64,000 bases of DNA from a virus. The stretch is from positions 23,761 to 87,760 of the IMG/VR virus record IMGVR_UViG_3300036832_001118; one strand, 5' to 3'. Positions within the stretch are counted from its first letter, which is position 1. The number at the start of each line of letters is the position of its first letter. The translations under genes were made by a program, and so were the position numbers. The notes beneath the pieces were generated by a model that saw nothing but the letters and a program-made list of their open reading frames with translations, was not told the DNA's origin and searched no databases. Below are positions 1 to 64,000 of this stretch, piece after piece.

Positions 1-1911
1 CAAGGCTGGAGCCTCACCGGCACCGTTGATGACTTCCGCTTTTACAATCGCGCTTTATCTGCGACCGAAATCAACACCATTGCCAGTCTCGGTGAAGCGG
101 TATCGGTCGGCATACCGTTGGTCTTGCGCGCGGCGGCGCGGGCACCGTTGGTCGGCGCGGGGAACGTCAATTCGCGTCTCGCAAGCACATTCAACCTAAG
201 CGCACCGTTGTCCGGTGTGGGCCAGCTTAATTCGCTTCTGGGGCGATCATCTACGCTGCAGGCCCCTCTGCTGGGTGCTGGCAATTTGCTGGCGACGATC
301 GGTCTACCGGCGCAGCCAGGCAAGCTCATTCCGATCAGCGCCGTCTTCAGCGAAGGCCTGATCGATCCGGATACGGGTCAACCCTACGGCACCTGGCACG
401 GGCGCGGCCGGATGGGTGTGACCTTCGGGCGGCTGATGGGGATCTTCGCCCAGTTTGCGGGCGAGGGCGGATGCGCGGTTACCACGACTTGGCTGCAGGC
501 CGACTATATCTGGCCCGGTATTGTCGAGGATGCCGGCGAGCAAGTGTTATACCGCCAGGCGGCGGGGCTGGAGAAGTCACTCGCCACCGTTGATGCTTAT
601 CGGTTGACCCAGACCTACGCCGAGCTGATTCGAGATCAGTGGGATCCTTACCGGATCAGCTCAACCAATCTCCCCTATTTGGCTTGGGCGATGGGGGTCA
701 ACCTGTGGGAGGACAGCTGGTCGGAAGAGTTTAAACGTTGGTGGGTCGCCAACCAGTGGACCAAGAAATACGAGCGCGGCAGCGCACTCGGGCTCAAGGA
801 CTTCGTTAACACGGTCAACGCCTCTCCGGGGATGCACGCCGAGATTGTGAACTTGGTGGTGCCGCCAGCGTGCTTCTATCCGGGCAAGGCGCTGACCGAT
901 GCTGAGCGGGCCGCTTATGTGGCGCGCTTTCCGCAATTGCGCCTCTATCCATACGCGCCGCGCCCGCAGTTGCCCTATCTCGGTTATCTCGGCGGCTACT
1001 CGCTGACTAAGGGTGGTCAAAAGATATTCGTCAAGAACGGTCACTTCCTCGGTCCGCTGCTCAAGTACTACCCGACCAACTACAACGCGGGTGGTCTCTA
1101 CCTGCGTTCAGCCTCGCTGTACGAGCCGAGGACCGGCGTGGAGACCCAGTTGACCGTGCGCACCATCACGGCCGCGTCGCAGCCGGGACAGAAGGAAATC
1201 ACCTACGACGAGATATCGCTGTCCTCTATTCCCGGCAATCTGTTCTATCCGGGAAACAACAACAAACAGTATCTGCTGGCAAGGCATCCGACCACGCAGA
1301 GGCTCAAGCACGCCGTTGTGCTGGGGCGACTACCCTATACGCCAAGCCGTCTGGTGCGAATTCCGCGTGACGGGACACTGGATCGCACACAATACCAAGC
1401 ACTATTCACTACCATTGGTACTGGCCTCGATCCGATCAAGGTGCGGCCGGAACAGGTCTATCAGATACATCCGATGCGACAGCTGGAATGGTACTGCGGC
1501 ATGCCTCTGCGCCGCACCTACCTGACCAAAACGAATGCTTGGCAATTCCTTTACGAGCGTTGGTATCTGTTCGATCCGACGCGGCTTCCCGATAACCGCA
1601 AGGCCGCCACCTACATGGGGCGCGCTCGGTTCGGTATCCATAAATATACGGCCGAGGCCGATATCCAGGCGTGGTTTACCTGGCCGAAGTTCTATGCGCG
1701 GGCCAATGGCTATTACGGCAAGGGGCGATTTTTCCCGCCCAAAAACACCAAACTGATTGATCAAATCAGGCGCGCAGTAACCGCCTCGATGGCGGCGCGC
1801 GACACTGTGCTGATCGACACAGGCATCAAGCGCACAATTCAAATCCGCGATCTGACGGTGCTCGATGGTCGATTCTCCATCGGCCAATATGTCACCGACA
1901 GGACCGCTTGA
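1..1911 (+). CDS. 5'-partial baseplate protein (P2 gpI-like) fused to an N-terminal LamG-like domain end and LxGAGxL repeats
   Basis: Frame is open from base 1 (QGWSLTGTVDDFRFYNRALSATEI, typical LamG C-terminus). The central LPYLAWAMGVNLWEDSWSEEFKR...KYERGS matches the P2 tail protein I motif. Confidence 0.75.
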   Translation, partial: QGWSLTGTVDDFRFYNRALSATEINTIASLGEAVSVGIPLVLRAAARAPLVGAGNVNSRLASTFNLSAPLSGVGQLNSLLGRSSTLQAPLLGAGNLLATIGLPAQPGKLIPISAVFSEGLIDPDTGQPYGTWHGRGRMGVTFGRLMGIFAQFAGEGGCAVTTTWLQADYIWPGIVEDAGEQVLYRQAAGLEKSLATVDAYRLTQTYAELIRDQWDPYRISSTNLPYLAWAMGVNLWEDSWSEEFKRWWVANQWTKKYERGSALGLKDFVNTVNASPGMHAEIVNLVVPPACFYPGKALTDAERAAYVARFPQLRLYPYAPRPQLPYLGYLGGYSLTKGGQKIFVKNGHFLGPLLKYYPTNYNAGGLYLRSASLYEPRTGVETQLTVRTITAASQPGQKEITYDEISLSSIPGNLFYPGNNNKQYLLARHPTTQRLKHAVVLGRLPYTPSRLVRIPRDGTLDRTQYQALFTTIGTGLDPIKVRPEQVYQIHPMRQLEWYCGMPLRRTYLTKTNAWQFLYERWYLFDPTRLPDNRKAATYMGRARFGIHKYTAEADIQAWFTWPKFYARANGYYGKGRFFPPKNTKLIDQIRRAVTASMAARDTVLIDTGIKRTIQIRDLTVLDGRFSIGQYVTDRTA

Positions 1912-6067: not shown

Positions 6068-6771
6068 TGCTGATGGTGCCAAGCACGCGCGGGTTCGTCG
6101 GCGCTGTACCGCTGCCGCCCTCAGCGCTTGACCCAAATTTTAGCGTGCCGGCGATAACGCTGAGCAACAACAACTTGACCGCCATCGGCAACTCGACGAC
6201 CAGCTCCGGCTCGGTGCTCGGTACCCAAGGGGCGGCCAGCGGCAAGCGCTACTTCGAGGCAACCTTCGATATCCTGGCCACTACTCCAAATGGGCTGGGG
6301 TCATTCGTCGGCGTGGTCAACACCTACTTCACGCGCCTAGCATATCCGGCAGGACTGAACCTGACTTTTATGTATCCCGGCACCGACAGTTATAGCTGGG
6401 GCTTCGGCCAATACCAGGGAAATTACATGGCCCAGCTGATTGGCGGAACTCCAAGTGGTACAGCGTTTTCTGGGAGTAATGGTGCCGTCGCGATGGTCGC
6501 CGTCGACCTCGACGCGGGTCATCTTTGGTTCGGCATGAATGGAGCCTGGTGTCAGGGTAGTCCGCTTGGAACAGTCGATTTTAGCATTCCTCCAGGGGGA
6601 TCGTTAGGGGGAGCGTTGTGGCCCGCGGTCTTTGTGACCGCGAACCCGAACTTTACCCAGGTCACCTTCAACCCTGGCTACGGGCCGTTCCAATACGGGC
6701 CGCCCAGCGGCTTCATAGCCTGGGGCGCGGGCGACGGCACCGGGGCATTTGTTAGCACAAGTCCCCGTTAA
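6067..6771 (+). CDS. SPRY/B30.2-like domain tail protein
   Basis: LSNNNLTA, SGKRYFE, VAVDLDAGHLWFGMNG, LWPAV, FQYGPPSGF motifs; paralogous to the C-terminus of 21012..22511. Confidence 0.7.
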   Translation: MLMVPSTRGFVGAVPLPPSALDPNFSVPAITLSNNNLTAIGNSTTSSGSVLGTQGAASGKRYFEATFDILATTPNGLGSFVGVVNTYFTRLAYPAGLNLTFMYPGTDSYSWGFGQYQGNYMAQLIGGTPSGTAFSGSNGAVAMVAVDLDAGHLWFGMNGAWCQGSPLGTVDFSIPPGGSLGGALWPAVFVTANPNFTQVTFNPGYGPFQYGPPSGFIAWGAGDGTGAFVSTSPR

Positions 6772-6804
6772 TGATGTCCGCAATGAAACATCACAGGATA
6801 GAAA

Positions 6805-7041
6805 ATGCCCATCCAAATCAACAACCAAACACTTGAGCTGGATGGCATCCAAAGCATCCTCGTCAGCGACATTCAGCCCGACACCGACACCGACTACTTT
6901 GTCCGCATTCTCACCTTCTTTAGCGATCCAATATCCACAACCAATCGCGCGCCGTTGTTAACACTGAAACTCTATGGCGGAAGCCAGTCCACCAACGACA
7001 AGTCTGAATTAGAAATCCAAACTCCGTCTCTGGAGTTTTAG
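6805..7041 (+). CDS. Hypothetical protein
   Basis: AGGA RBS; 78-aa ORF before the terminator. Confidence 0.55.
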   Translation: MPIQINNQTLELDGIQSILVSDIQPDTDTDYFVRILTFFSDPISTTNRAPLLTLKLYGGSQSTNDKSELEIQTPSLEF

Positions 7042-7091
7042 TTCACCGAGCCTCCCTGGACCTGGATCCCTATCCCTCACAGGTCCCACCT

Positions 7092-7124
7092 GGCCGGCAG
7101 CTCGCGCTGTCGGCCTTTTTGTTT
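7092..7124 (+). terminator. Intrinsic terminator
   Basis: GGCCGGCAGC-tcgc-GCTGTCGGCC hairpin followed by a T-tract. Confidence 0.7.
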
Positions 7125-7147
7125 TCCTGCACCGAAGGAGCAGCAAC

Positions 7148-9043
7148 ATGTCTCAGCCCTATTTCGGCCTACAGTTTATCCAACTCGACGACCAGCCGAT
7201 TCCGGTGCTGGGTGCCAATATGGATGTGATTGGAATTATTGGACCGTGCAGCACGGCCGATAATACCGTGTTTCCCCTCAACACCCCCGTCCTCGTCTAC
7301 TCGAACGATACCGATACCCTACAATCGCTTGGGAGTGACGGATACATCCAAGATGCCATCAACGGCATCAATGCGCAGTTGGCTGACTTCCAGGTCGCGG
7401 CGCAACTCGTGATCGTCGTCACGCCGTATGGAACGGCCGCGGACCTCAACATCAAGACGCAGCAGACGATTGCCAACATCATGGGCAACAGCGTCATGCG
7501 CACTGGTGTGTGGGCATTCACTAACGCGGCCAATATGCTGTACTGCACGCCGCGCCTGATCATCGCCCCCGGCTATACTGGTCAGATGGCCAACAGTTTG
7601 AACACGCTGTTCGTCAACACGGTTGGTATCGGCTACGTCCCCTATGGGACCTATCAGATCCAGTTCGCGCCGGGTGTGGGCGAACTCAATGGAGCGACGT
7701 TGGTTCTTCCCACCGCGCATGCGGTGGCGGAGGCGGATGGCTCGATCCATGAGCAGGATATCTTCATTGATAGCTGGGGGGCCTGGTTCACATCGGCGCC
7801 GACCGCAACCATTGTGACGCCCGACGGGCCGCCGGTCGTGGCGCAGCGTGCTTCGGGCAGCATGATCTTCAATCAGAACCCCGGCATCGGTTCGACCATC
7901 ACGCTCGGCGGAACGACCGTGACGTTTGTCTCCGGCACGCCGACCGGCAATCAGGTGCAGATCGGCGCCAACCTGTCGATCACGCTGAACAATTTGCTGA
8001 CGATGCTCAACGCCAGCGCCGACACCAACATCAGGATCTGTCAGCCGTATACGCTGAGCACCAACCAGCTGTTGTTCATCGCGACTGCCGCGGGGGCAGC
8101 CGGCAACGGCTTCACGCTTTCCGGGACGGTCACTGGGCTCTCGATCTCTGGGCCACACCTGACGGGCGGTCAAGATGCAATGGCCTCGGTCCGGTGCACG
8201 ATGACGGCGACGGTCGCGCTCGGTGCCAACCCGGTCTGCGCAGCGCTCGGCGGCGGCGTGCTCGATAATCTGATCGGGCAAGCGATTGTTGAGAGTGCCG
8301 GCACCTCGCAAATCCAGGACGAGAACTGGCGCACCACGATGAACAATCAAAGGGTCATTGCGGTCAGCGGTGGGGTGAAGATCCAGGATCCCGTGTCAGG
8401 CAACATCATCGTGGTGCCGCGAGCTGGTCGTGAGGCTGGCCTTGCTGTGGCACGTGACTTTGCCACCGGCGCGCCGTTCCACTCCTGGGCCAACCAGCCC
8501 ATCCAGGGCATCGTCGGGCCCGCCCGCACGGTCGAGTTCTCACTGACTGATCCGGCCTGTGAGGGGCAGCAACTGCTTGCCGCCAATATCGGCATCATCG
8601 CCCGCGGTTTGATTGGTGTGGAAACGGCGGTCAGTTCCGGCGGGTTCATCTCGATCACGTTGGACAACACAGGGGATGATCCTCTGTGGCAAATGATTAA
8701 CGTAAAACGCGGCAGAGACTTCATTCACCTCAGTCTCATGCCAGTGTTGCGGACCTACCTCGGGCGCTCCAATATTGATCGGCAGACGGTAACTAATGTT
8801 ATCACCACGATCAATGACTTCCTGTTCACCCTGAAGGCGCGCCAGCAAATCATCGACGGCAAGGCGTCATTCAACGGCAGCTTCAACACCGCAGGCGAAA
8901 TCCGGCTCGGTCACCTGACCGTTGGGTTCTCCGCCGAAGAAGCGCCGGTGCTCAAACTGATCACGACCATGTCGTCTCGGTACAAACCTGCGATAGATCA
9001 AATGGTCGCACAGCTAGAGCAACAGCTAAATATCTCGGCCTAA
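7148..9043 (+). CDS. Contractile tail sheath protein (P2 FI-like)
   Basis: FPLNTPVL, TGVWAF...PRLIIAPGYT, PFHSWANQPIQGIVG and W..INVKRGRDFI sheath motifs; strong AAGGAG RBS. Confidence 0.9.
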   Translation: MSQPYFGLQFIQLDDQPIPVLGANMDVIGIIGPCSTADNTVFPLNTPVLVYSNDTDTLQSLGSDGYIQDAINGINAQLADFQVAAQLVIVVTPYGTAADLNIKTQQTIANIMGNSVMRTGVWAFTNAANMLYCTPRLIIAPGYTGQMANSLNTLFVNTVGIGYVPYGTYQIQFAPGVGELNGATLVLPTAHAVAEADGSIHEQDIFIDSWGAWFTSAPTATIVTPDGPPVVAQRASGSMIFNQNPGIGSTITLGGTTVTFVSGTPTGNQVQIGANLSITLNNLLTMLNASADTNIRICQPYTLSTNQLLFIATAAGAAGNGFTLSGTVTGLSISGPHLTGGQDAMASVRCTMTATVALGANPVCAALGGGVLDNLIGQAIVESAGTSQIQDENWRTTMNNQRVIAVSGGVKIQDPVSGNIIVVPRAGREAGLAVARDFATGAPFHSWANQPIQGIVGPARTVEFSLTDPACEGQQLLAANIGIIARGLIGVETAVSSGGFISITLDNTGDDPLWQMINVKRGRDFIHLSLMPVLRTYLGRSNIDRQTVTNVITTINDFLFTLKARQQIIDGKASFNGSFNTAGEIRLGHLTVGFSAEEAPVLKLITTMSSRYKPAIDQMVAQLEQQLNISA

Positions 9044-10893: not shown

Positions 10894-13800
10894 ATGGACG
10901 ACATCCTCGCCAGCGCTCAAGTTGTTTTGGAAGGCGTTGACAAAGTCAGTCCTGCTGCGACCTCGAGTATAGACGCGCTCAAACGGCTCGCCGCGACTGG
11001 CGCTGATGTACAACGGCAGCTGATCAATGCCGCACAGAACCATCAGCAAACGCTGCAAGTCCTTAATAAAATTTATGCGCAGAACCAGCAGGCGGCACAA
11101 GCCGCGGGTACGGGAGCGACCCAAGCCGCCAATGCAGCATCTCAGGCGGTTCAGAAGCATACGCAAACGGTCCAACAAGTACCTCCCGCACTTAATGCGG
11201 CGGGACGTGCCGCCAATCAGCTGCAGAAACAACTGACGGATGCGTTCTCGGTCTATGCGATTGAGGAGTTCATTCGCAAGTCTTACATGGCTTTCACCAG
11301 CCAAGAATTGGCGATGCGTAGAGTTCAACTCGCCGCTGGCGGCACGACAGAGGAGATCAACAAGGTACACCGGGGACTGCACGATATAGCCACCGAAACT
11401 AACCAAGCGACCGAGAATATGGCCAAGGCGTTTCGCGACTTTCAGGCCCGATCCGGGCTGGGCTATGGTGAGGCAGTAAAGGCGTTTAGGGCCGTGGCTG
11501 ATGCCGCTGATTTGGCTGGCGTCCACGTTGACGCGATGTCGCGCGTTGCCACGGCGGCGATGGCGCAGTTGAACATCAACGACAAGGAATTGTCGCAGCT
11601 CATGGGAGCTTTTGGCAAAGCCTTCGCCGGAATGGGCAGTGAAGCTTTGCATGTCATGCCGAATATCATTGCCTTGATGCAGCGGCTTCATATCACCGGA
11701 AAGGATGCGCTTGAAGGAGTTGCTGCTGCTATCCAGGCTACAGGCAAGCTACAGGGCTCAGCTGAGGGGGCCGCGCGCGGGTATCAGGCCATCGTCGACC
11801 TGGCGTCTCGTCCAGATACTAGGCTGGGTTATGTACTTCAAGACAAAGTTCAAGCCGTTGCGGATCATATTGGCGACACTACCGATTTATACGCGGCTGC
11901 CCTTGAGAAGATGCGAGAGGAATGGAAGAAGACTGGCGGCAATTTTCGCAGCGAGATGATGCAATTGAATTTAATGTTTGAGGGCAACCAAGACGCAATA
12001 CAAACGGCCCGAGCTGCCATGAAGTTATCCGATGAGGAATTTAAAAAATACATTCAAGACTTGAAGGAAAAAATGGCGACAGAAAAAGAAGCCGCAAAGC
12101 TACATGAAGAGACCATGAGAGGAGCAATCGACGGAACGCGTAAGCTCATTGGCGCCTGGAATGATTTGGAACTTTCGATCGGCGGGCTCCTGGATAAGCT
12201 GGGCGCAACCGACAGTCTGAATAGTACCGTCACTGATTTGAAGAAGCTCACGGAATTGCTTGAGTGGCTAGATAAGTTCATGAAAGAGCATATGAGTATG
12301 GGAGGGCTCGGCGGTGTAACAAGTGGATTTGGTCTCGGGACGCGGTTTCGCGAGCATATTTTAAGTCTTCCTCCCGCCTTCAGCATGGGCACCCCGGCGC
12401 CGCCGAGAATGCAATCTGGCGGCGTTGTCACTGAACCAACCGTCGCAATGATCGGCGAGGCTGGGCCCGAAGCGGTCGTGCCGCTCGGCGGTGGTGGCGC
12501 TGATATGCGTGGCGCTGACGGCGGCACTCAAGCCGAGCGTGAGGCGGCCGAGATGTGGGGACGTCTGCATGGTCTGGCCGGAGCGCGCCACAAGCACGTC
12601 GATCTGAAGGGCCAACTCAGCCAAGAGGAATTGGACAAGATCCTGCAAGCTGAGGGAGGTGGCGGCCCTGGTGGTGGCGGCCGTGACACCGGGTGGGGAC
12701 CGGGGAGTGGACGCGGGGGAACCAGAGGGGACGGCACCTCTCGTGGTGACGGCAGAACTGACGACAATAGAACTTCCGATGTGAAGCCGCCTCCAGCGGC
12801 AGCGCCACTGCCAACGCAAGGCGCGGCTGGCATCCCTGGGTTACCCGGCAGCCCATCCGGTCCAGCGCTGACGCCTGAAGAGCGCAAAGCGGCGGGGGCG
12901 CCGAGCGGTGGAACAGGAGGAGAATTTCAAGCCGGTGGAAAGTACTCAAAATCACAGCAGGCGGCCATCAATGCCGTTGTAAATGAATGGCGCAAGGCTG
13001 GAATGTCTGATGTTGGCATTGCAGGTGTTCTTGCCAACATTCGTGAGGAATCTACATTTGATCCAACTTTGCGACATCCCGATCAGCCAAAATACGGCGG
13101 TGAAGCGCATTTTGCGCATGGCTTGTATCAGGAAGGCGGCGCTGAATGGAATAACTACGTAAGTTGGATGCAGCGGAATTATCCAAAAGGCGATTGGCGT
13201 GATCCGAAATTGCAAAGTGAATTTGCTGCTAAGAATTTGCGCGAAGGGATAGGCGACGCGCGTTATAAGGCAGTTTGGGAAAGGATGAAAAATGCCAAGA
13301 CGCCAGCGGAAGCAGCAGCGGCTTATGTTGAAGGTTATTTGAAACCTGCCGCAAAATATCGAGAAAAACGCGTTCGTGAGTTCAGGGCCGGTGGCGCTCC
13401 CGGTTTAGAGACATATGGAACCGGAACTGGTGGCCCCGCTGAGATAGCGCGACCCGACTTGCCGCCGATAGGTCAGGTCGCCGGGCTGCCGGGTGGGCCG
13501 TCTGGTCCGAGCCTGACGCCGGAACAAAGGAAAGCGGCTGCGACTGGTGGCGGTGGGGGCGGCGGCGAGGGTGGTGGCAGTGTGATCTCTCCATTCCCAG
13601 GCGCTCATGGGTTTGGAATCGGGTCTAGCAATGTTTATGGAGCAGGCAGAAGCGGAGGGCGCCGAGCGCATTCAGGTAATGATCTTCATGCCGGTGATAG
13701 TCCGGGGTCGACTCCGAATGGCACGCCTGTAGTGTCAATGACTGGTGGTACGGTTCTCTACAACGGCAGGAATTCGGGATATGGAGCAAATATTGTCATC

Positions 13801-40306: not shown

Positions 40307-41116
40307 TCAGCCCTTCTCTCCGGTGAGGGCGAACTTCTTCGGCTTGAACATCTGGAACGCACGCAGCAGCCGCTCCTCGCTAGCGGCAACGCGGCTATCA
40401 GGGTGCAGCAGCGACAGCACAAGGTTGAACTCGGCAGCCGTCATGATCTTCTTCTGCTTCTGCATGAACTCAAGATAAAAACGCTTGGTTTCGGAGGCCT
40501 CGTTCTGCTCCTGCTGCAACGTCGGCATGATGCGCTTGATGTGATCCCTGATCTCCGTCATGCGGCGCTGGTCGTATTCGTTATCGAGTTTGCGTTGATG
40601 CTGTCTAATCGCCGCACTAAGTTTTTGCTGGGCTGACATCGACAACATTTTGCGGTTGATTTCCGGCTCAGCATTGGCCGCCGCGTCGCGTCTGATTTCC
40701 TCGTCTTTGAGTATTCTCGATGTTTGCCGCGAGCCGATCCCGACTTCGGCTGCTATATCTTTGGTTGATCGTCCGACCTCTTTGGAGGAAATCACCTGAT
40801 CCTTGACCCGTTCGGACTTGGACCCCTTTTTGTAGCCGGAGCTGCCTTTTGGTCGTCCGCCCTTGGGGCGAGCAGGTTTAGACATGATGTCTAAACCCTC
40901 CAAGTCCCGACTGATTTGCCGTTGGCTCACCTTCAGCTTGTCAGCGATCTGCTGCTCAGTCATGCCGTCTTTGTAAAGCTCGGCCGCCTCCTCACGCCGC
41001 CATTCCGCCTGCTGGCTTGGCGATAGATACTCATAAGGCGCCCCGCAGGAACACTTGGCATCGGTCAGCGCTCCGCAAGCGGTGCAACGCAACGTCAGAG
41101 TTGTGCGTGCGTCCAT
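40307..41116 (-). CDS. Zn-ribbon plus double HTH DNA-binding protein
   Basis: CTAC...CSC; GMTEQQIADKLKVSQRQISRDL; STKDIAAEVGIGSRQTSRIL; GGGAGG RBS. Confidence 0.7.
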   Translation of the reverse strand: MDARTTLTLRCTACGALTDAKCSCGAPYEYLSPSQQAEWRREEAAELYKDGMTEQQIADKLKVSQRQISRDLEGLDIMSKPARPKGGRPKGSSGYKKGSKSERVKDQVISSKEVGRSTKDIAAEVGIGSRQTSRILKDEEIRRDAAANAEPEINRKMLSMSAQQKLSAAIRQHQRKLDNEYDQRRMTEIRDHIKRIMPTLQQEQNEASETKRFYLEFMQKQKKIMTAAEFNLVLSLLHPDSRVAASEERLLRAFQMFKPKKFALTGEKG

Positions 41117-54763: not shown

Positions 54764-55162
54764 ATCAGTAATCCCAGTTTAGATCGGCGCTCGATGGCTT
54801 GGCAGATCTAATTGCCCGCCCTATTCGTCGATGGAATGCGGTGGCCGCATCCAGAGACCAATCCTCAACCATACTGTAAGTTCGCGATCGGTTGGTAAGA
54901 TAAGAAAATTGAGCCACTACCCTAATGGGGTACGCATCATGCGGGCCGCGATAAAAGTTGAAATAATTAGATGCGATTTTGATTCTGGACAGCATCACCA
55001 ACTTCATCCGATTCTTGCTGTCGCGGTACTATCAGATCGGCGCGCGCACCGCAACGCGGACAGGCTGGCCATATGGTCGTGCTGCTGCGTTTGCCGCGCC
55101 AGCCGCAACGAACGCAGACTACGCGGATTTTTTCAGATCGCTTGTTGTGGCGTTTCATGAAA

Positions 55163-55513
55163 TTACTGCTTTTTTCGCGTCCTAACAAGCTTCGCGATGT
55201 GCTTGCTGGTGATAAATCCGGCCTCAAGTGCAGCGGCTTTGTTAAGAATAGCAGCTTGCGATTGTCCGTTCATCCAATATCCACCTGTATGCACATGTAT
55301 GGCAAAGCGGATCTGAACTTTGACTGCATCTCCTGATTTGGCACCAACTATACGGGCAAAGGATTCGCAAAATTCATCAAACGAATTGTTGATCCCGCGA
55401 CCGGGCGCAGGGGCGGATGGTGATTCCCATTCGGTCACGGCCCCAAACAGGACAATAAGCCGTTCGTAAAGATGCTTGCGCCCCACAGGCGTCCATATGT
55501 CTGGATCATGCAT
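55163..55513 (-). CDS. Hypothetical protein
   Basis: GGAG RBS; overlaps the end of the MTase gene. Confidence 0.55.
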   Translation of the reverse strand: MHDPDIWTPVGRKHLYERLIVLFGAVTEWESPSAPAPGRGINNSFDEFCESFARIVGAKSGDAVKVQIRFAIHVHTGGYWMNGQSQAAILNKAAALEAGFITSKHIAKLVRTRKKQ

Positions 55514-56399
55514 TTGTCATCTCCGGTTGGCGCACCCTTTGTCTTGACCATGAATCCGGTTCCGGCCGCACGATGAAGCCAATGCGTCCGAATTCATGCT
55601 TGAACGCATCGGGCTGCGGGCCGAAGTAGAAAAAGGCTTGGCCCTGTGTCGGTTGGGCTAAGCCGCCGTCGCAATCTTGGAACTTGATCCGACCTTGCGT
55701 GAAGCAGACGCAATCAGCCGCTGATATCGCGTCGTGAAACCACATCGCGTCGGTGAAATTGTGGGTCAGCGCAATGCAGGCGCTGACGCGATGGGAATTC
55801 CATTCACTGATCAGTTTGCTGATGAACTTGCCCATGGTCGGCTGTTGATACGGTGAATTGAGCCAGACCCGTCCGTACCACGGTTGATGCAACCCGTTTT
55901 GCTCTTTGTCGAAGTACTGCTTCGCCTTAACCGTCCGCTGCGCCTGCTCGCAGGATGCGGGGTCGAGATCGATATCGCCCAAAACCGCGCGTGCCCGCGA
56001 GATATATTCGAGCGGCGTATACCACTCATTGCGCCTGCGCGCGATCGTGCCGCGATACTTGGGACGAAACTGAAAGCTGATCAGTTGCCTGATCTCAGCG
56101 GCCCGCGCTAAATCCTCAACTGTGGCGCAGGGATTGGTGACGATCTCCTCAAGCTGGTTGGCCAGCTGCCAGTTTGCCGCCAGCCACTCGGCGCCTTGGA
56201 TCAGCGAGCGTGCTGCGGGCTCGTTAAAGCCGAGCACGTCCTCATGTGCTCTGATCCAGCTCTGCCATTGCTTGTGGCCAAGCGATTCCTTGCACTTGAT
56301 CAGCCCCTTGCCCGCCTCACTCAAATAAAACGGTCGGTCGTTGCTTGATGTCCTGGCCTTGCGGTAAAGAACACCGATGGCGATGGCAGCCTCGGACAT
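55506..56399 (-). CDS. Phage Dam-type N6-adenine DNA methyltransferase with a DUF3102-like N-terminus
   Basis: EWYTP, IDLDPAS, VWLNSPY, T.A.WF, GRIKF, PTQGQAFFYFG. Confidence 0.85.
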   Translation of the reverse strand: MSEAAIAIGVLYRKARTSSNDRPFYLSEAGKGLIKCKESLGHKQWQSWIRAHEDVLGFNEPAARSLIQGAEWLAANWQLANQLEEIVTNPCATVEDLARAAEIRQLISFQFRPKYRGTIARRRNEWYTPLEYISRARAVLGDIDLDPASCEQAQRTVKAKQYFDKEQNGLHQPWYGRVWLNSPYQQPTMGKFISKLISEWNSHRVSACIALTHNFTDAMWFHDAISAADCVCFTQGRIKFQDCDGGLAQPTQGQAFFYFGPQPDAFKHEFGRIGFIVRPEPDSWSRQRVRQPEMTNA

Positions 56400-56405
56400 G
56401 GCTGA

Positions 56406-57308
56406 TCACATCGTGGTATATGTTTCATTTAGTCGTGAAACATCAAGGCGTCCTGACTTGCCCGGATGTTTGTTGATGTTGTCAGCCAGCCAACGCGCTA
56501 TCTGCAGCGGCATGTCGCCAGGATGGATGCGCAACGCTTTGGCCCCAGTCTTGGCCCAGCGCGTCTTGACATGCTCGATAATCTCATCAGGCGGATGATT
56601 GATGAGTTGCTTGCGCACCGGCTCGTCGATCGGACGCGGCTGCGAGTCATAGAGAATCGCAATGCCAAACACCATGTAGCCGTAGACCCTATATCGGTCC
56701 TTCCAGCATTCCCTGATCGAGTTAAGCGATTTGACCATGACGCCATGCCTGGGGTCCATATCGAGCTGCCAGGCTTTTTCAACGTAGCTGGGCCCGCGCA
56801 AATTGCGCTTTCCCTTGCCGTTCAAGGTATAACCGCAAGCTTCGATGGCGGCCTCAAAGCCCTTGTCAGTGCCAGCCACGCCGTAAGAATGCAGCGCCGT
56901 CTCTTTTCGAATAAACTCCTTGAGGCGCCGCGAATTGGTCAAGGCGAACATCTGCGCCTCTTGAGCCTGACCGGTAGACTGAAACACCTTGCAGTCGACT
57001 TCGCGGTCTTTCTCACCGCGACGAACGAGGCCCTCCTTGCGGGTTACGCCGTCATAGATCCAGTAACTACCGTTAGGTCGTTGCGCGACAAGAAATACAT
57101 CAAGCCACGCCTCGTAAAATTCGTGCTCAATGTTATGGGCGATGCGCTCGCGCGGCCGGGTCTGATAAGACCAGTCGACCTCGAGCTCGCTGAGCTTCAG
57201 TCGAGTAATGATTCCTGATTGATGCAGGATCGGCGCAAGGAGCGCGGCTTCTTCAGGCGAAAGGATCGACTTTCGCTGCTTTCCCTTGCCGTTAAGTTTC
57301 GTCGCCAT
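56406..57308 (-). CDS. ParB-like (DUF6551-like) protein
   Basis: L.VD.SYQ.R......I...F......V..R.NG.YWIYDG.TR...EA..F...N; GAGGAGG RBS. Confidence 0.65.
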   Translation of the reverse strand: MATKLNGKGKQRKSILSPEEAALLAPILHQSGIITRLKLSELEVDWSYQTRPRERIAHNIEHEFYEAWLDVFLVAQRPNGSYWIYDGVTRKEGLVRRGEKDREVDCKVFQSTGQAQEAQMFALTNSRRLKEFIRKETALHSYGVAGTDKGFEAAIEACGYTLNGKGKRNLRGPSYVEKAWQLDMDPRHGVMVKSLNSIRECWKDRYRVYGYMVFGIAILYDSQPRPIDEPVRKQLINHPPDEIIEHVKTRWAKTGAKALRIHPGDMPLQIARWLADNINKHPGKSGRLDVSRLNETYTTM

Positions 57309-58329
57309 CTTGTTCCTCCTCGTTTTTTTCCTCCGGTAGCGGCTCGTATAGACGACTCGGCCGCAGACACAGGCCAATCACACAGAACACATCCTCAAAC
57401 CGCTGCACATCGTTGCCGAAGTAGAAAAATGCCTGACCTTGAGTTGGTGCTCCTACAATTTCGGCGGGGTGGAATTGAATCCGACCACGCGTGAAGCAGA
57501 TGCTCTGACAGACGCCCACCGCCGTATTAAACCACTCGGTATCGGTGGAGTTGTTGGTGAGCATGATTGCCGCAGTGATGCGACCTGATGCAATTTCCGC
57601 AACTAATTTGCTGATGAAGGCGGGCAGCAGCTTTTTATGATAGGGCGGGTTAAGCCATATGCGGCCGCGCCATTCCTGGCTCAAGCCGTCATCCTCAATC
57701 GTGAAGTAATCGGTGGCGTCTACTGTTTGCTGCGCCAGATCGCATGAGGCTGGATCTAGGTCAATCTCACCGAGCACTCGGCGTGTCGCCTCGATGTATA
57801 TGGCGGGCGTATAACGTTCGATTTCTCCGGTGCCTTCGGTGCCGCGCACGGTGCCGTCATTTTGCTGCTCGCAAATGCGCGTGGCGCGGTGCTTGGCGAC
57901 GTTTTGGCGCGAGACGATCTTGTCCGGATCGCTGATCCATTTTGATCGCTTGTCCGGCTTAGAACAAAAGCGCGTGTTCCAGCGATGAATTACGAGGTCG
58001 CCGGGATCGGCAGCGGGTAAGTAGGATTTCAGTGCTGAAATCCTACTTATGCCTTTTCGGCCCGATGATGCTGCTTTCTGCGATGATTCTACCGCCTCAT
58101 TGCGCCAAACGAGGTATTTGACTTGCTCGTCTATCTTGATTTTGATGGCTTTTTCCAACTGCTCACGCGCAAACGGGTCCTTGGTCTCACGCCACGCGCG
58201 GGCCCAATGCCGCTCGCCAGCCTCCGCGACGGCGATCGTCTTGAGGCCCTTATCGGGATCGTAGATGGTAACCGAGCGCTCTGCACCCAGCTCGACAAGC
58301 TCGCTCAAATGCTCGCTGATTTTGGCCAT
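57292..58329 (-). CDS. Phage Dam-type N6-adenine DNA methyltransferase with an N-terminal extension
   Basis: ERYTP, IDLDPAS, IWLNPPY, TDTEWF, GRIQF, PTQGQAFFYFG. Confidence 0.9.
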   Translation of the reverse strand: MAKISEHLSELVELGAERSVTIYDPDKGLKTIAVAEAGERHWARAWRETKDPFAREQLEKAIKIKIDEQVKYLVWRNEAVESSQKAASSGRKGISRISALKSYLPAADPGDLVIHRWNTRFCSKPDKRSKWISDPDKIVSRQNVAKHRATRICEQQNDGTVRGTEGTGEIERYTPAIYIEATRRVLGEIDLDPASCDLAQQTVDATDYFTIEDDGLSQEWRGRIWLNPPYHKKLLPAFISKLVAEIASGRITAAIMLTNNSTDTEWFNTAVGVCQSICFTRGRIQFHPAEIVGAPTQGQAFFYFGNDVQRFEDVFCVIGLCLRPSRLYEPLPEEKNEEEQDGDET

Positions 58330-58388
58330 CGAATCGCCCGCTGAAGGGCGCGATGATCATGATCTCCTTGACGCATGTCAAGTGGGTA

Positions 58389-59711
58389 TCAAGGAATGTT
58401 TTGCGGAAAGCCAACCATGGCGGCGTCATGCGCGCCCAAGAACCAACGCGCAATGCGCCCGGACAGCGATGGACACTGTGGGATAGTCGGCGTAACCGGC
58501 GCCGCCGGGGCGAGCCCATAGGTCAGCAAGTCATAGGCCGAGACGCGGTCAATGGCGCCCTCATACTTGCCCGCGATCGGCGAGGTATCCAGCACAGCCT
58601 CGCGCTCTTGCGCCGTCAACGGGCCAATACGTGAGGATGGCTTACGTATCTGGATGCGTTCTACCGGGCTCGGTGCACCGGTCTGATTCAGGAACGACAC
58701 CAGCGCCTCGCCGGTGCCGAGCTGCATGATCACCTTGGCGGTGTCGAGCTTGGGGTTCGGCCGGAAGGTGTCTGCCGCAGCTTTAACGGCCTTCTGATCG
58801 CGTGGCGTGAAGGCGCGTAGCGCGTGCTGCACGCGGTTGCCCAGCTGCCCCAGCACCTTGTCTGGGACGTCACGCGGGTTCTGGGTGACGAAGTAGACGC
58901 CAACACCTTTGGAGCGGATTAAGCGCACCACGTGCTCGATCTGATAGAGCAATGGCTTGGGCGCGTCGGTGAACAGGAGATGCGCCTCGTCAAAGAAGAA
59001 CACCAGCTTGGGCTTGTCCTGATCGCCGACCTCGGGCAGCTGCTGTTCCATTTGCGTCAGCAGCCAGAGTAGGAATGTGGCGTAGAGTTGCGGGTTGTGC
59101 ATCAGCTTATCGGCCGCCAGGATATTGATGCGGCCGCGCCCCTGTGCGTCAGTGCTGAGAAAGTCATCCAGCTCGAGCGAAGGCAAGCCAAAGAAATGGT
59201 CTGCGCCTTGGTTCTCCAGCACCAGGATCTGACGTTGGATGGTGCCGGCCGTTGGCTTGGACACGCGGCCATATTCGGCTGACCAGATGCTACCGGCTGA
59301 TGTGGTCAGGAAGGTCAGAAGGGCGCGCAGGTCCTTGAGGTCGTCTAACAGCATGCCGTGATCGCTGGCGACGCGAAAGGCAATGTTGAGTGCACCCTCC
59401 TGAACTGCGTTGAGGCCCATCATGCGGCTGAGCAGGATCGGACCGATGCTCCATATCCGCGCTCGCACCGGGTGACCCTGCTTGCCAAACAGGTCCCAGA
59501 ACAGCACGGGAAACCGATCTGATGCCGCAATGCCGGATAAATCGCCCTTGACGTCAGCGGCGAACACGGGGACGCCGGCACGGGAAAAACTCTCGGCTAA
59601 TCCCTGCAGTGTGACCGTCTTGCCGGTGCCCGTGGCGCCGGTGATTAGGCCGTGCCGGTTGGCCAGCGCAAGGTTCAGGCTTGCGCCTTTGCCTAGAAAT
59701 ATCTGATCCAT
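58389..59711 (-). CDS. HerA-like ATPase (DUF853/YjgR family)
   Basis: [57 protein letters not shown]. Confidence 0.9.
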
Positions 59712-59712
59712 T

Positions 59713-59904
59713 TTATTCCCCTCCGTATTTCATTTTGAGCTTGACGCGTTGGATCGGCAGGCCTTGCAGCAGTACGCTTTCCTCAATTGCCTTCCGCACA
59801 TCTGACTTTGTCGGGAAAACGATCGCCGTCGTCGGATCATCGTCGCTTTCCGCATAAACGCTAACCGCGCCGTCCGGTGACTCGCACAGAATAATATATG
59901 GCAT
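59713..59904 (-). CDS. Small early hypothetical protein
   Basis: Part of the tightly packed leftward operon. Confidence 0.5.
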
Positions 59905-59908
59905 GCGC

Positions 59909-60094
59909 CTACCATCCCTTTGGTATGCCGTGCTTAACGTACATCTGAATTAGCCGCGCGACGGTCTCTTTGATCGGCAACTCGCCTGACTCGTAGCGTT
60001 GCGCGGTGCGCAGGTTCACAGCCAACTTGCGCGCCAGCTCCACATTGTACAAACCAAGCTTCTCGCGTGCGGCCTTGTATTCTGACGCGTCCAT
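59909..60094 (-). CDS. Small XRE-family HTH regulator
   Basis: EYKAAREKLGL..VELARKL.VNLRTAQRYESGE.PI. Confidence 0.8.
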   Translation of the reverse strand: MDASEYKAAREKLGLYNVELARKLAVNLRTAQRYESGELPIKETVARLIQMYVKHGIPKGW

Positions 60095-60191
60095 TGCTAT
60101 TGATCCTTTCGAGCGTGGTCCTAGTTTGACCTCACAGTTTGCTAGGGTCAGCTCATGGCCGGGGGACTGCAATCCCCCGGCCGCTTTGTGT

Positions 60192-60515
60192 TTAGCGTCC
60201 ATTCCACTTTACACGGATTTCTGTCACATCGATTTTCCCGGTCGATTCATCGATAAAGGCGCCGTAAAACCACAGGCCACATCCGGCCATGTAATACGAT
60301 CCATGTTTGTCTGACGTTGAAAACTTGATATCTCTCACCGAAGCGCGGCAAGAATATTGCTGATAGAGTGCCTGCTGCACCCTTTCCTCATCACTCGGTG
60401 GAGCGGAAGGCGCTTGCGAGCCTATTACAGCGCCTAATACAGCGACCCCTGCTATGGTCCCAAATAACAGACCAACCATTGTCAGCCCGACTTTATTTTC
60501 TCTTTTTCTGTCCAT
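60192..60515 (-). CDS. Membrane-anchored hypothetical protein
   Basis: AAACTGTGAGGA leader; N-terminal TM segment. Confidence 0.55.
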   Translation of the reverse strand: MDRKRENKVGLTMVGLLFGTIAGVAVLGAVIGSQAPSAPPSDEERVQQALYQQYSCRASVRDIKFSTSDKHGSYYMAGCGLWFYGAFIDESTGKIDVTEIRVKWNGR

Positions 60516-60590
60516 CTGATAATCCTCACAGTTTGATTTGATGCACAAGCGCATCATGGGACGGGCCATCTGACCCGCCCGGTGATGGGC

Positions 60591-60815
60591 TCAAAGCGTA
60601 TCCAGAAATTCGCGGAAGGCGTCGCCATGCGCAAGAAACAACGGCGCCAATTCATTCGAGCGATCGATTGCCGCAGTCAGCGCAGATATAGCATCAAGCA
60701 TCGCCCCTCCAGCGGCAATCTGCGCCCGCCGATGTTCCTCAACTATGGCGTGATAACGGGCTGAAATATCGCCGATCCGGGCAATGATGGCGCGTTGTTC
60801 TGGCGTATAGTCCAT
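60591..60815 (-). CDS. Hypothetical protein
   Basis: GAGGAGG RBS. Confidence 0.55.
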   Translation of the reverse strand: MDYTPEQRAIIARIGDISARYHAIVEEHRRAQIAAGGAMLDAISALTAAIDRSNELAPLFLAHGDAFREFLDTL

Positions 60816-61040
60816 CTGATCCTCCTCAGTTCGCATTATTCGCCGCATGTGATGCTTGTAGCGCGCTGATAAACTCCTGAATGTTCTCCGGATCAGTGAT
60901 CAAGCTTGTGATCGCGAACCCCATAACGGCAATGGCCTCACGCTCTGATAGGCCGCGGTCCTGAAGATATTCAAGCAGCGCTATCGCCTCGTCGCGCAGC
61001 ATTTCCTCAACGTCCTCTAGATTGCTCATGTTCTGATCCC

Positions 61041-61187
61041 TCATGCTTGTTTGGTCAGCCAATAGTTCAGGCTATTCACGCGGTCCTGTGCCTCACGCTT
61101 GGTGTTCGCGTTGTAGACTTTTGTGTTTTGCTGACGGTCCCAAATCTCCCATCCGAGATCGGTCCGGTGCACATAGTAGCGTTTCAT
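61041..61187 (-). CDS. Small early protein
   Basis: AAACTGTGAGGA leader. Confidence 0.5.
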   Translation of the reverse strand: MKRYYVHRTDLGWEIWDRQQNTKVYNANTKREAQDRVNSLNYWLTKQA

Positions 61188-61250
61188 CTGATCCTCACAG
61201 TTTGGCATGATTGCCCAATTGCCCCACACAATGGCGAGGCAATAAGTCAA

Positions 61251-61484
61251 TCACTTGCCGCGTTTTGCTATTGTGTCGTTTATTCCGTATGCCTCAAAAT
61301 AATCCGCGACCAACTCAGCGTCTATGTCCGGGTCGTCGCAATCGTCTACGCGCCAGACAAGCTCGGGCCCGTCCGTGTAGATCACATGCGCCTGTTGCGC
61401 CGCGTCTTTCTCGCTGGTCGCCTCAATTTCCAGTGTGGCACTCTGATAGACGGTCTGCAGGATAGTTACGCGATACTTGGACAT
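61251..61484 (-). CDS. Small early protein
   Basis: KYRVTI......EIEA.SE..A motif common in phage early regions. Confidence 0.55.
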   Translation of the reverse strand: MSKYRVTILQTVYQSATLEIEATSEKDAAQQAHVIYTDGPELVWRVDDCDDPDIDAELVADYFEAYGINDTIAKRGK

Positions 61485-61494
61485 GGTTGCCCCA

Positions 61495-61710
61495 CTATTT
61501 CGTGAGTTGGCGATCGTGTTGCTCAAGTCGATCGAGCACGCGCGCCATTTGCGTATGCATCGCGTGCAGCTCGGTCAGGATTGCTGTTTGTCCGGTGTCA
61601 AGGCGCATGAGAATGGCGTGTTGCACGCGAAACTCATCCTTGATGCTGGCAACTTCATTGATCAGCACATCAACCCTGCTTGCCAGTAATGTCCAATCAA
61701 CCTCGGCCAT
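61495..61710 (-). CDS. Coiled-coil small protein
   Basis: ACTGTGAGGA leader; heptad pattern. Confidence 0.55.
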   Translation of the reverse strand: MAEVDWTLLASRVDVLINEVASIKDEFRVQHAILMRLDTGQTAILTELHAMHTQMARVLDRLEQHDRQLTK

Positions 61711-61745
61711 GTGTCCTCACAGTCAGCGTCATGTTAGTTTGCTTA

Positions 61746-61934
61746 TCAGTTTGTTTTTGCCGCATTGCGGGCACACATCAGCGCGCGCGCATAGGCGAGA
61801 TCAAAGGAACCGGGATTGTTGCGGTCGCCGCTAAAGGTGCCAGCGATCTCGCGTTGATTGGCGCGGCTGCGCTCTACAACATAACCCGTCGTGTTGTTGT
61901 AGTAGTCGCGGCCTAAGGTTCGAATGTTCCACAT
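61746..61934 (-). CDS. Small early protein
   Basis: AAACTGTGAGGA leader; first gene after the promoter. Confidence 0.5.
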   Translation of the reverse strand: MWNIRTLGRDYYNNTTGYVVERSRANQREIAGTFSGDRNNPGSFDLAYARALMCARNAAKTN

Positions 61935-61969
61935 GTTGTCCTCACAGTTTGGTTGTATTCAGTAAATAG

Positions 61970-61998
61970 AATATACGGCGCGGCGCCGCAAAATGCAA
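61970..61998 (-). promoter_or_regulatory. Sigma70-type early promoter with an operator in the spacer
   Basis: TTGCAT-N17-TATATT; TGCGGC-N5-GCCG(T/C)A palindromes in the spacer and at 62017-62037. Confidence 0.6.
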
Positions 61999-62386
61999 AT
62001 GGAATTGTGCGCGTTAAATGCGGCGCAATGCCGCATTATGATATGTGCTTCGTGCGCCATAATGGAGACTTGTGGGCATTCCATAATCATTAGGGGGGGG
62101 CAAAATGACAGAGGCCCAAGCCAAATTCGTCGCGGATTATATTCTCGCCGATCGCATCGCCGATACAGGAACAGGTATGCCAACCATCGTTGCCTACCTC
62201 AATAGCGGCGCCCATACCTTTCGCGGGAGCAAACTCGTATTCGACGAAATCAGTAGGCTGTTGATCCTGGACGACAACATTTTTATCCGCTGCGAACAGT
62301 GCGCCGCGATCGAAATCATTCCCAAATAAGACGCGAAAACCGAGTTTAGGGTCATTCTGTCAACTATATCACAATAATTTGATATG

Positions 62387-62630
62387 ATGGCACAGGATAC
62401 CTCTTTGGCGCAGTCAAATATGGGTGCGCCATAAGTTTTTAAAATTGGCGCCTTTATGGCGCATCATGGCGCAGGGCGACGCGTCAATACCCCCGCAAAA
62501 CTCGCATTTGCGCCATTGCGCCATGCGGGGGGTGCGAAGCACACACCCCCCGCCGCTTCGCTATGGCGCACTGGACGGCGCCGCAAAGCGTGCATGGCGC
62601 AATGGTGCAAAGAAAATGCGGGTTTTGTGG
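62387..62630. repeat. Iteron-like TGCGCCAT octamers and nested inverted repeats (putative replication origin)
   Basis: Seven exact and four variant copies in both orientations within a non-coding region. Confidence 0.55.
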
Positions 62631-62788
62631 CTTCGTGCGGCGCCAGCCATTTTCGCTTCCGCGGCTTGACCTTTAAGAAAAAATAGAAGAAATTTGGCGC
62701 GCGTTGAAAAGAGACAAGGCACAAGGGAAACAACCGTCCCAGATCGGGGCGGTTTTTTATTGGGCGTGTCGGGCACCATGGTACCACT

Positions 62789-63265
62789 GTGCCAAAACAG
62801 AAAACTTCTACAGCTGTAAAAAGCAAAACCTTCAACGGAAAGGTGCGGCAACAGCGCCTAGAACGCCAATTGCGTCCGTATGAGGCGCCAAAAGAGGCGC
62901 CAAAGAAGTTTGCTAATCCTAATGGTCGCACCAGAGGGCAGCCGAATAATATCTCGCGCCTAACACGCGAAGCTATATTCGAGGGTCTATCGCGCTGTGG
63001 CGGTCGCGAGGGTATGGTCGGGTTCGTTATCAAGGCGACAAACGAAAATATCAAAAACGGCGTAGCCATGCTCAATATGATCACGCCGCGTATTGTCGAC
63101 GCGATCGTTACCCATAACGACATGATCTTTAAGACGCTGGCTGAAGTAGACACAGAGCTCGCAGCACGCGGCTTGCCCACGTCGCAAGAGATATTCAAGC
63201 TGGATTTTAAGGGCGATACGGATGACGAGGGTATGGTCATAGAGAATGAAGTTGGTAAGGAATAG
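62789..63265 (+). CDS. Terminase small subunit-like protein
   Basis: NPNGRTRGQPN..SRL.REAI...L...GG..G; basic N-terminus and acidic C-terminus. Confidence 0.65.
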   Translation: MPKQKTSTAVKSKTFNGKVRQQRLERQLRPYEAPKEAPKKFANPNGRTRGQPNNISRLTREAIFEGLSRCGGREGMVGFVIKATNENIKNGVAMLNMITPRIVDAIVTHNDMIFKTLAEVDTELAARGLPTSQEIFKLDFKGDTDDEGMVIENEVGKE

Positions 63266-63375
63266 TAGGATTTCAGCGCTGAAAGTCTACTGTCCCCAAA
63301 CCCTATTCGCAATTCACCATTACTGCCATTGAAACCATTAGCTTATTTTCCCTAAAATAATTGTCCCCTAAGGGC

Positions 63376-63404
63376 TTGTATTGGGGACAAGGGTATGCCA
63401 TATA
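63376..63404 (+). promoter_or_regulatory. Sigma70-type promoter with an overlapping TTGTCCCC...GGGGACAA inverted repeat
   Basis: TTGTAT-N17-CATATA; inverted repeat at 63361-63390. Confidence 0.5.
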
Positions 63405-63433
63405 CAGTCTATCGAAACTGTGAGGACAAGATC

Positions 63434-63601
63434 ATGTTTGTATCACCGCAATGGAAAGAAGTTTTTGGAGTGTTCACTGCTCGCAATGGGCAATGGGCGC
63501 TTGTGTCCACCCATGGCAATCTGGCCGAGGCTATGCGCGAACGGGATTATGTGGCCCGCGATCTAGGTCAACAGGCGACCGTGCTCCGCAAGGCTCTATA
63601 G
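63434..63601 (+). CDS. Small hypothetical protein
   Basis: AAACTGTGAGGA leader before ATG 63434. Confidence 0.45.
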   Translation: MFVSPQWKEVFGVFTARNGQWALVSTHGNLAEAMRERDYVARDLGQQATVLRKAL

Positions 63602-63780
63602 GGCATAGGGAGGCCCTCTAGGGAGGGTGCCCTCAGAAACGTTTCCAGGGGCCCCAGTCGAGACGGCCCCGAAATGCGAAGCTCTCCAATGTATATCTGC
63701 CGCCACCTTTTTCCCCTAATAGGCGAATGGGTCCCATATTCAACCCCTAATACCAATGGGTCCCATATTTAGAGGTTGTC

Positions 63781-64000
63781 ATGCGTGCCGTTTTTTACTT
63801 ACGCGTCAGTACCAAGGATCAGGACACTGACAATCAGGAGCGGGAGCTTCGGGTTGCGGCGGCTCGGTTGGGTCATGAGGTGACGCACATTTATCGCGAC
63901 CATGGGATCAGCGGTGCCAAGGGTCGAGACAGGCGGCCTGGGTTTGACCAACTGCACCGGGACGCCAGCCGCGGGAAATTCGACCTCGTCATGGCCTGGT
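63781..64000 (+). CDS. Serine recombinase (resolvase family), 3'-partial
   Basis: MRAVFYLRVSTKDQ...Q...L...Y.D.GISGAK...RPGF..L...A..GKFD.V..W; GAGG RBS. Confidence 0.9.
   Translation, partial: MRAVFYLRVSTKDQDTDNQERELRVAAARLGHEVTHIYRDHGISGAKGRDRRPGFDQLHRDASRGKFDLVMAW

Follow-up and report, generated by a model that had tools for sequence, protein, structure and literature searches.

A co-varying palindrome inside a phage Dam-family methylase gene as a candidate DNA site for the enzyme's own helix-turn-helix

What keeps a long and perfectly symmetric DNA sequence in place within a protein-coding gene, and what might read it, are the questions raised by a methylase locus in the virus record IMGVR_UViG_3300036832_001118 of IMG/VR. 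A DNA palindrome (palindrome 1) lies inside the gene of a long-form Dam-family N6-adenine methylase, and a near copy of it (palindrome 2) is found 5.2 kb away at the end of another open reading frame (ORF). The source record has 87,760 bp, is classed by IMG/VR as linear, is 94% complete with 58% G+C, and probably derives from a soil metagenome; the stretch analysed here, called the window, comprises 64,000 nucleotides (bases 23761-87760 of the record). Coordinates within the window are collected in Table 1. Here, we describe a family-wide, co-varying palindrome at the linker of these methylases and weigh the proposal that it is a DNA site read by the helix-turn-helix (HTH) of the enzyme that it encodes.

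Palindrome 1, with its perfect 15-nt arms, codes for the peptide ISRISALKSYL, residues 94-104 of the methylase, and palindrome 2 is identical to it at 25 of 28 bases (89%), exactly as described in an earlier reading of the sequence by a model, hereafter the original prediction. The arms of palindrome 2 contain two mismatches, both in the right arm, and its first bases lie within the TAG stop codon (63263-63265) of the preceding ORF. A chance origin of the palindromes is ruled out by the perfect arms and by the half-site counts: a perfect 15+15 palindrome is expected by chance, on our estimate, fewer than 0.001 times per 64 kb, and the exact half-site occurs at two places only, in the window as in the entire record. 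Half-site matches with three mismatches are at chance level in the window (10 found, 9.1 expected), and an exact-pattern scan of viral contigs returned no match to the palindrome.

The methylase consists of a helical N-domain, the palindrome-bearing linker, an HTH-like segment, and a catalytic domain that matches the Pfam family Dam (E 8.3e-15, residues 174-295). It has 3,679 homologues at E ≤ 1e-5, and the closest matches in bacterial genomes belong to metagenome-assembled genomes of Alphaproteobacteria. Among cultured phages, none of 646 matching records covers at least 80% of the protein, and the four such records that were opened carry short, catalytic-only methylase genes. Single-protein scans for close relatives returned none for the methylase, the 158-aa product of the ORF at palindrome 2, or the HTH_23 protein discussed below. 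In a family alignment of 28 of the 120 listed homologues, the query, and the second methylase of the window, the palindrome peptide falls in a variable stretch ahead of a conserved LPxADPGD..HRWRKRLC block. In AlphaFold models, this peptide forms a loop of low confidence flanked by long helices; the helical stretches are residues 25-49, 52-87, 111-121, and 135-158, to which the shorter model adds a brief one at 97-103.

The palindrome is a property of the family. Homologue DNA was taken from viral, metagenome, and genome contigs, and identical genes were counted once throughout; a subset of 36 loci holds methylase matches that start at or before residue 25 and contain no stop. In all of the first 12 loci examined, a palindrome is present at the homologous place, and every sequence is different. 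Of 54 distinct homologous genes, 44 have a linker palindrome stronger than any elsewhere in the gene, and the linker palindrome scores at least 8 in 41. The original prediction had suggested looking among homologues for a segment that is hypervariable yet always palindromic, and what the homologues carry is indeed a set of different, co-varying arms at the same position. More than 100 genes with the palindrome have been examined; the element is kept at one position down to about 36% protein identity, also in subfamilies with unrelated N-termini, and its dyad axis occurs in all three reading frames across homologues.

Pairing between the arms is conserved well beyond their sequence. With the dyad axes of 59 genes superimposed, the bases at ±7 to ±12 are complementary in 88-98% of them, compared with 19-32% beyond ±16. 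A MAFFT alignment of 52 elements (that of the window and 51 even-centred elements out of 58, the seven odd-centred ones being left out) has 81.4% of its cells paired versus 50.8% after shuffling, a level that none of 500 shuffles reaches, and controls slid along the same alignment give 40-48%. All 12 pairs of this alignment are altered on both sides. The centre is conserved in one subfamily, approximately as CAGA|YCGG, with G/C at ±2 in 85% and C/G at ±4 in 78%. Its orientation is uneven (14 sense versus 3 antisense six-mers; GACC 11 times versus GGTC 4 times), counts that are uncorrected for kinship and carry little weight.

Methylases that match in the catalytic domain only show the same arrangement. 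A palindrome scoring at least 9 is present within 600 nt upstream in 80 of 137 such genes, and in 72 of these 80 it lies inside the ORF. With the same score, 73 of 132 catalytic-only genes have a palindrome in a 460-nt upstream interval versus 9 of 132 in a same-size control interval inside the catalytic domain. Between the axis and the IDLDP motif, the median spacing is 248 nt in the catalytic-only set and 232 nt in the subfamily of the query. In four cyanobacterial relatives (L232, L235, L239, and L241), two to three copies of the palindrome stand, operator-like, at the start codon of a shorter methylase gene, and the start codon in L228 has a related, more complex repeat. The tandem copies occupy 9622-9717 in L232, 9644-9712 in L235, 9557-9717 in L241, and 6211-6272 in L239; in L232 and L241, the first codons of the gene are repeated after each palindrome copy.

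These comparisons bear directly on whether the palindrome has any function. It could merely be tolerated in a permissive loop, its symmetry being kept by template-switch 'quasipalindrome correction' and its second copy being a chance duplication. The low-confidence loop that holds the encoded peptide would suit this, as would the decayed or missing palindromes of some homologues, the linker failing to beat the rest of the gene in 10 of 54. Such an account leaves unexplained the persistence of the element at one position to such low identity and beside unrelated N-termini, the conserved centre in one subfamily, and the recurrence of the same layout in a second HTH family, and we consider it very improbable.

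Strong covariation is also what a structured RNA would leave behind, and a hairpin in the methylase mRNA could control translation, stability, or termination. All 12 pairs co-vary, the RNA fold of palindrome 1 is stable (-23.9 kcal/mol, z -5.3), and in the cyanobacterial relatives the palindrome abuts the start codon. In about one third of the elements, an A-run precedes the stem (49 of 146) and a T-run follows it (46 of 146), where the background is 7-8%. The A-run and T-run, however, carry no strand information because the palindrome is identical on both strands, and the mismatches are not those of an RNA helix: among 58 arm mismatches in the 146 elements, 11 are G·T and 12 are A·C, and the axis alignment of 59 genes has 10 G·U and 8 A·C. 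In 48 of the 146 elements the centre is 0-2 nt long, too short for an RNA loop. An intrinsic terminator is rejected for both copies of the window, since neither has an A-run before or a T-run after its stem and both are absent from the terminator-like sites of the window, and a known RNA family is rejected because Rfam gives no match at E ≤ 1 in 55000-64000. The lack of a G·U excess, the very short centres, and the lack of an Rfam match therefore place the constraint on the DNA duplex or on DNA hairpins, and an RNA hairpin is an improbable explanation. As far as sequence comparison reaches, the evidence points to a constraint on DNA, not on peptide or RNA.

A candidate for the reader of this DNA is encoded next to it. 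Palindrome 1 lies just 5' of the coding DNA for the putative HTH-like segment and partially overlaps it, and in relatives the stretch ..EAExxTGIsxQQVSRWRxRL.. follows the palindrome peptide immediately. HTH-like segments were compared from 97 of 112 strong-palindrome loci, the other 15 having been dropped for an in-frame stop or a short segment. The Pfam matches of 98 such segments are mostly to HTH families (HTH_23 in five, MarR_2 in three, HTH_29 in three, HTH_3 in three, and HTH_ParB in two). Alignments of 31 and 27 of the 98, picked by subfamily and by eye, represent two subfamilies that align with each other over the HTH-like segment (98.9% probability, E 3.5e-17). The putative methylase HTH also has a weak sequence match, which is not significant, to that of the Sf6 small terminase (E 0.46). 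No other gene offers itself as a partner: clustering of the neighbours of 59 loci rejects a conserved neighbour, the commonest cluster being present in only 8 of the 59.

We therefore favour the reading that the palindrome is a self-addressed DNA site, read by the methylase's own HTH, because a position-conserved and co-varying palindrome with DNA-type mismatches adjoins an HTH-like segment and has no partner gene. Both the binding and its effect are deduced from sequence, and we rate this reading as evenly poised between right and wrong. Palindrome 1 would be a dyad-symmetric cis-site that acts at the DNA level and belongs to the methylase gene, placed in a loop that tolerates any peptide. 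A methylase dimer would bind it through its own HTH, and the bound enzyme would be docked on its own gene or would throttle it. In recombination between phage genomes, the site and the domain that binds it would travel together as a single cassette. The slightly decayed palindrome 2, upstream of a promoter-like site of a recombinase cassette, would give this protein another place at which to dock or to exert control. The original prediction had likewise proposed that the gene carries the site of its own product; this part finds indirect support in the abutting HTH-like segment, the missing partner gene, and the HTH_23 parallel, and the part that assigned the site to an adjacent ParB-like protein does not hold, as discussed below.

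Several observations weigh against a methylase that reads its own gene. The methylase of the window has no Pfam HTH match of its own, its subfamily has a shortened form of the HTH, LPAADPGDLVIHRWNTRF, and the Pfam HTH matches elsewhere are weak and concern a minority of the 98 members. A PDB fold search with the AlphaFold model of residues 1-168 returned generic helical bundles only, none at E ≤ 0.001. A site 310 nt inside the gene is an unusual place for an operator, and positions that are seemingly uncontacted are still complementary, which is more than a plain operator requires. The second copy is missing from relatives: the whole records of six of them, four of which are only 62-85% complete, have the intragenic copy and no other. 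Finally, relatives with a near-identical recognition helix (QQVSRW) have quite different arms, so that either the specificity lies elsewhere or the arms matter only through their mutual pairing, as in a hairpin or cruciform.

This last point makes a structure-only DNA element the main rival. A hairpin or cruciform, extruded under supercoiling or from single-stranded DNA during replication, could act by its shape, for instance as a point of pausing, nicking, or recombination, with no sequence-specific reader and with arms that drift freely as long as they pair. Arms that vary and remain complementary even at non-conserved positions, strict Watson-Crick pairing, many elements that are perfect to the centre, and unrelated arms beside similar recognition helices all agree with it. 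An element of shape alone does not account for the fixed geometry and the conserved centre of one subfamily, for the constant HTH-coding neighbour in two unrelated families, or for the two copies of the same sequence in this phage, and no nuclease or replication gene travels along in the 59 loci. Two copies with the same arms indicate instead a reader that recognises sequence. We regard the structure-only element as unlikely, although it deserves to be taken seriously.

The second family in which the layout recurs is represented in the window itself. As the original prediction had noticed, a palindrome at 40875 lies inside another DNA-binding gene, and it is a perfect one; its peptide begins three residues after the end of the HTH_23 domain. 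In a comparison that used 24 of 40 proteins, two of five related loci cover the part of the gene with the palindrome, and a palindrome stands at the corresponding place in each of the two: that of L280 differs from the palindrome of the window by two compensatory changes, and that of L281 is a different palindrome. The HTH_23 gene is unrelated to the methylase and has the same layout, which is thus possibly a general way to keep a site and its reader together. The wider proposal, that it is common for HTH proteins of mosaic phages to have the palindrome that they target in their own coding DNA, no more than a few codons from the HTH, and that such a target docks Dam-type methylases on phage DNA, is tentative, and we would put it on the doubtful side.

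Table 1. Features of the window that are discussed in the text.
Feature	Position	Strand	Remarks
Palindrome in HTH_23 protein gene	40875..40897	no strand	Perfect 11+1+11 (23 bp); encodes aa 74-81 of the HTH_23 protein
HTH_23 protein gene, 269 aa	40307..41116	-	Contains the 40875 palindrome; Pfam HTH_23 E 2.5e-10, aa 38-70
ParB-like gene (DUF6551)	56406..57377	-	Between the two methylase genes; not a conserved palindrome partner
Long-form Dam-family N6-adenine methylase gene, 345 aa	57292..58329	-	Pfam PF05869, phrog_111
Coding DNA for aa 97-121 of the methylase	57967..58041	-	Putative HTH-like segment: short helix, turn, helix LVIHRWNTRF
Palindrome 1	58018..58049	no strand	15+2+15 dyad, perfect arms, TG spacer; within the methylase gene
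ORF, 158 aa	62789..63265	+	Function-unknown family phrog_11043; 'terS' of the original prediction
Palindrome 2	63264..63291	no strand	13+2+13 dyad, centre CG; non-coding on the gene strand
Repeat of the 127 nt at the record start	63278..63404	+	Beyond it, two ~90%-identical cassette versions diverge
Promoter-like site	63329..63358	+	TTGAAA, 18 nt, TAAAAT; consensus match only; 51 nt right of the palindrome 2 axis
Small serine recombinase gene, 5' part	63781..64000	+	Cut by the record end; Pfam Resolvase 1e-43, phrog_125 DNA invertase

Palindrome 2 has no counterpart of its kind among the relatives. A second copy is found in 5 of 112 loci, four of which are the cyanobacterial tandems at the gene start and one of which is chance-like. 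Together with the six relatives' records, this leaves unsupported the expectation in the original prediction that each palindrome variant has matching copies elsewhere in its genome, and the absence of second copies from those records makes palindrome 2 peculiar to this phage. An origin as the relic of a second methylase gene is rejected since tblastn and blastn similarity ends at the palindrome. The ORF whose stop codon it overlaps had been taken for terS, with the second copy marking an origin or packaging region. The overlap with the stop is real, but the ORF product has no Pfam or NCBIfam match and belongs to phrog_11043 only, and the large terminase is encoded about 7.4 kb further on (record 6692-8173), with the portal at record 11065-12561; both the terS assignment and the origin or packaging role are thus unsupported. 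To the left, between the leftward early genes and this ORF, an octamer, ATGGCGCA, and its complement occur seven times in about 180 bases (62425-62601) and once more at 62053, a cluster with an iteron- or operator-like look.

To the right of palindrome 2 follow the promoter-like site, a 68-aa ORF, and the serine recombinase gene. The small ORF and the recombinase form a cassette that is present at both record ends, which are alike over about 735 nt at about 90% (63278-64000 versus record 1-736; L005); the other recombinase allele is complete (record 493..1104, 203 aa). Sequencing depth in the probable source run (X1) is about 17-19 for the version at the record start, about 8 for the version at the record end, and 18-23 over the remaining phage genome. 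These depths agree better with two alleles of a single locus than with two loci, and we read the record as one circular or permuted genome with two recombinase-cassette alleles. A second run, X2, shares few of the words (0.18) and has pieces of 85-95% identity, and nothing is concluded from it. The first base of the record falls exactly on the dyad axis of palindrome 2, and the two versions first differ after 127 nt. Since 127 is a usual largest word size of metagenome assemblers, this identity followed by divergence is most simply taken as an assembly-graph vertex in place of a real DNA end or recombination joint at the record start. Each allele has two copies of a direct repeat, GGGTCCCATAT, at a spacing of 29-31 nt shortly before the start codon of the recombinase (63729-63768; record 464-505), and these repeats are candidate sites for the recombinase or a regulator. 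Record 1-9000 has no strong inverted repeats, so that an invertible tail-fibre segment near the recombinase is rejected.

The recombinase invites the question whether the two palindromes are its crossover sites, comparable to hix, gix, or res site I. Inversion of the 5.2 kb between them would give the methylase another N-terminus and act as a switch, either on/off or between isoforms; judging from the sequence, it would leave a product of the N-domain only and a methylase that restarts at an in-frame ATG seven codons before the palindrome. The likeness to such sites lies in the 13-15-nt inverted half-sites around a 2-bp centre (12-15 nt in the known sites) and in a resolvase/invertase-type gene beyond palindrome 2, which stands upstream of it. 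Two serine-recombinase relatives moreover have 30-32-bp palindromes 30-70 nt upstream of the gene (L255 1429-1458; L260 5897-5928), candidate recombinase sites whose sequences are unrelated to the palindromes of the window. The centres here differ, however, being TG (58033-58034) and CG (63277-63278), and unequal central dinucleotides block productive serine-recombinase exchange. Contigs of the probable source run span both palindromes in unaltered, parental order, and neither palindrome has a listed joint, although contigs cannot show rare forms. Roughly 500 nt separate palindrome 2 from the start of the recombinase gene. The closest relatives of the recombinase (77% identity) have neither a palindrome scoring at least 10 within 6 kb nor such a methylase, and the intragenic palindrome is family-wide while the recombinase gives a tblastn match in only 1 of 160 loci. 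Because of the unequal centres and the comparative data on recombinase relatives this explanation fails, and its probability is slight.

The neighbours of the methylase gene include a second Dam-family methylase (297 aa, with a different N-terminus) and the ParB-like DUF6551 gene directly downstream (55506-57377), and a HerA-like ATPase gene (PF05872, E 1e-188) at 58389-59711 directly upstream on the same strand. An imperfect palindrome had been reported in the second methylase (peptide NWQLANQL, about 56151-56175), but its arms have 7 nt with one mismatch, and no palindrome of that gene rises above background in the scan. Several small early genes (60126-61951, minus strand) and the 68-aa ORF (63412-63426, plus strand) have the motif AAACTGTGAGGA shortly ahead of their start codons, at a distance of a few bases. 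Five places there carry ACTGTGAGGA, and of the ten occurrences of CTGTGAGG in the whole record, six fall in this region. These motifs may be a shared ribosome-binding or control element.

The ParB-like gene raises a further candidate for the reader, in which the palindrome is a parS-like centromere or loading site of the adjacent DUF6551 protein, as the original prediction had held possible. Its position between the two methylase genes would agree with such a role, as would L007, a relative that shares this neighbour. Phage ParB-fold proteins often work with DNA-modifying enzymes or are fused to them, according to the passages searched in two papers (PMC12704722; PMC13229309). Clustering finds a homologue of the ParB-like protein close to the methylase in only 3 of 59 loci, and tblastn in 2 of 160, though most loci have the palindrome, and it is because of this low co-occurrence that the ParB reading fails; the searched text of the same papers makes no mention of palindromes. 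We consider a ParB-like user of the site highly improbable.

Orphan methylases are widespread in phages and are usually regarded as enzymes that float freely and recognise short target motifs. Binding of the enzyme to its own gene, if real, would account for the way in which such enzymes are restrained or directed to phage DNA, and methylases would join the short list of proteins with a site inside their own gene. Protein and site would form an inseparable cassette, with self-limiting expression or with methylation that starts in cis, and phage DNA-modifying enzymes would have a defined loading site, so far undescribed. A small set of word searches in the full text of the literature returned no description of a palindrome inside phage methylase genes.

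Systems with comparable parts are known. Among them are methylases of the SsoII, Ecl18kI, and EcoRII type, which regulate themselves through an N-terminal HTH. They share with the methylase described here an additional DNA-binding region, putative in our case, and a palindromic site at the own gene. In contrast, they are C5-cytosine restriction-modification enzymes with the operator in the promoter, whereas the present enzyme is an orphan phage Dam-type methylase (PF05869) with a putative internal HTH and a site within the coding sequence, or at the start codon in the cyanobacterial relatives. The crossover sites hix, gix, and res site I differ from the present palindromes in their centres, in the rearranged joints, none of which are seen here among contigs that would miss rare forms, and in the company of a recombinase, which is found in 1 of 160 palindrome loci. 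The ParB-fold systems described in the passages searched (PMC12704722; PMC13229309) likewise combine a DNA-modifying enzyme with a DNA-targeting module, and a DUF6551 gene adjoins the methylase here; those passages name no DNA site, and in the present proposal the targeting module is an HTH of the methylase itself, with a ParB-like gene that is not conserved alongside.

A broader comparison is offered by sites embedded in genes. They include parS in spo0J/parB, pac in terS of P22- and SPP1-type phages, the lambda origin in gene O, and the pT181 origin in repC. The proteins of those systems serve partition, packaging, or replication, whereas the one concerned here is a methylase; each genome has a single site, and the methylase case has no iterons, no AT-rich tract, and no ParA/ParB CTPase domain in the protein. 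What the methylase palindrome has in common with these systems is a cis-site inside the coding DNA of its own binding protein, putative here, with a linkage of the two that is kept in mosaic genomes.

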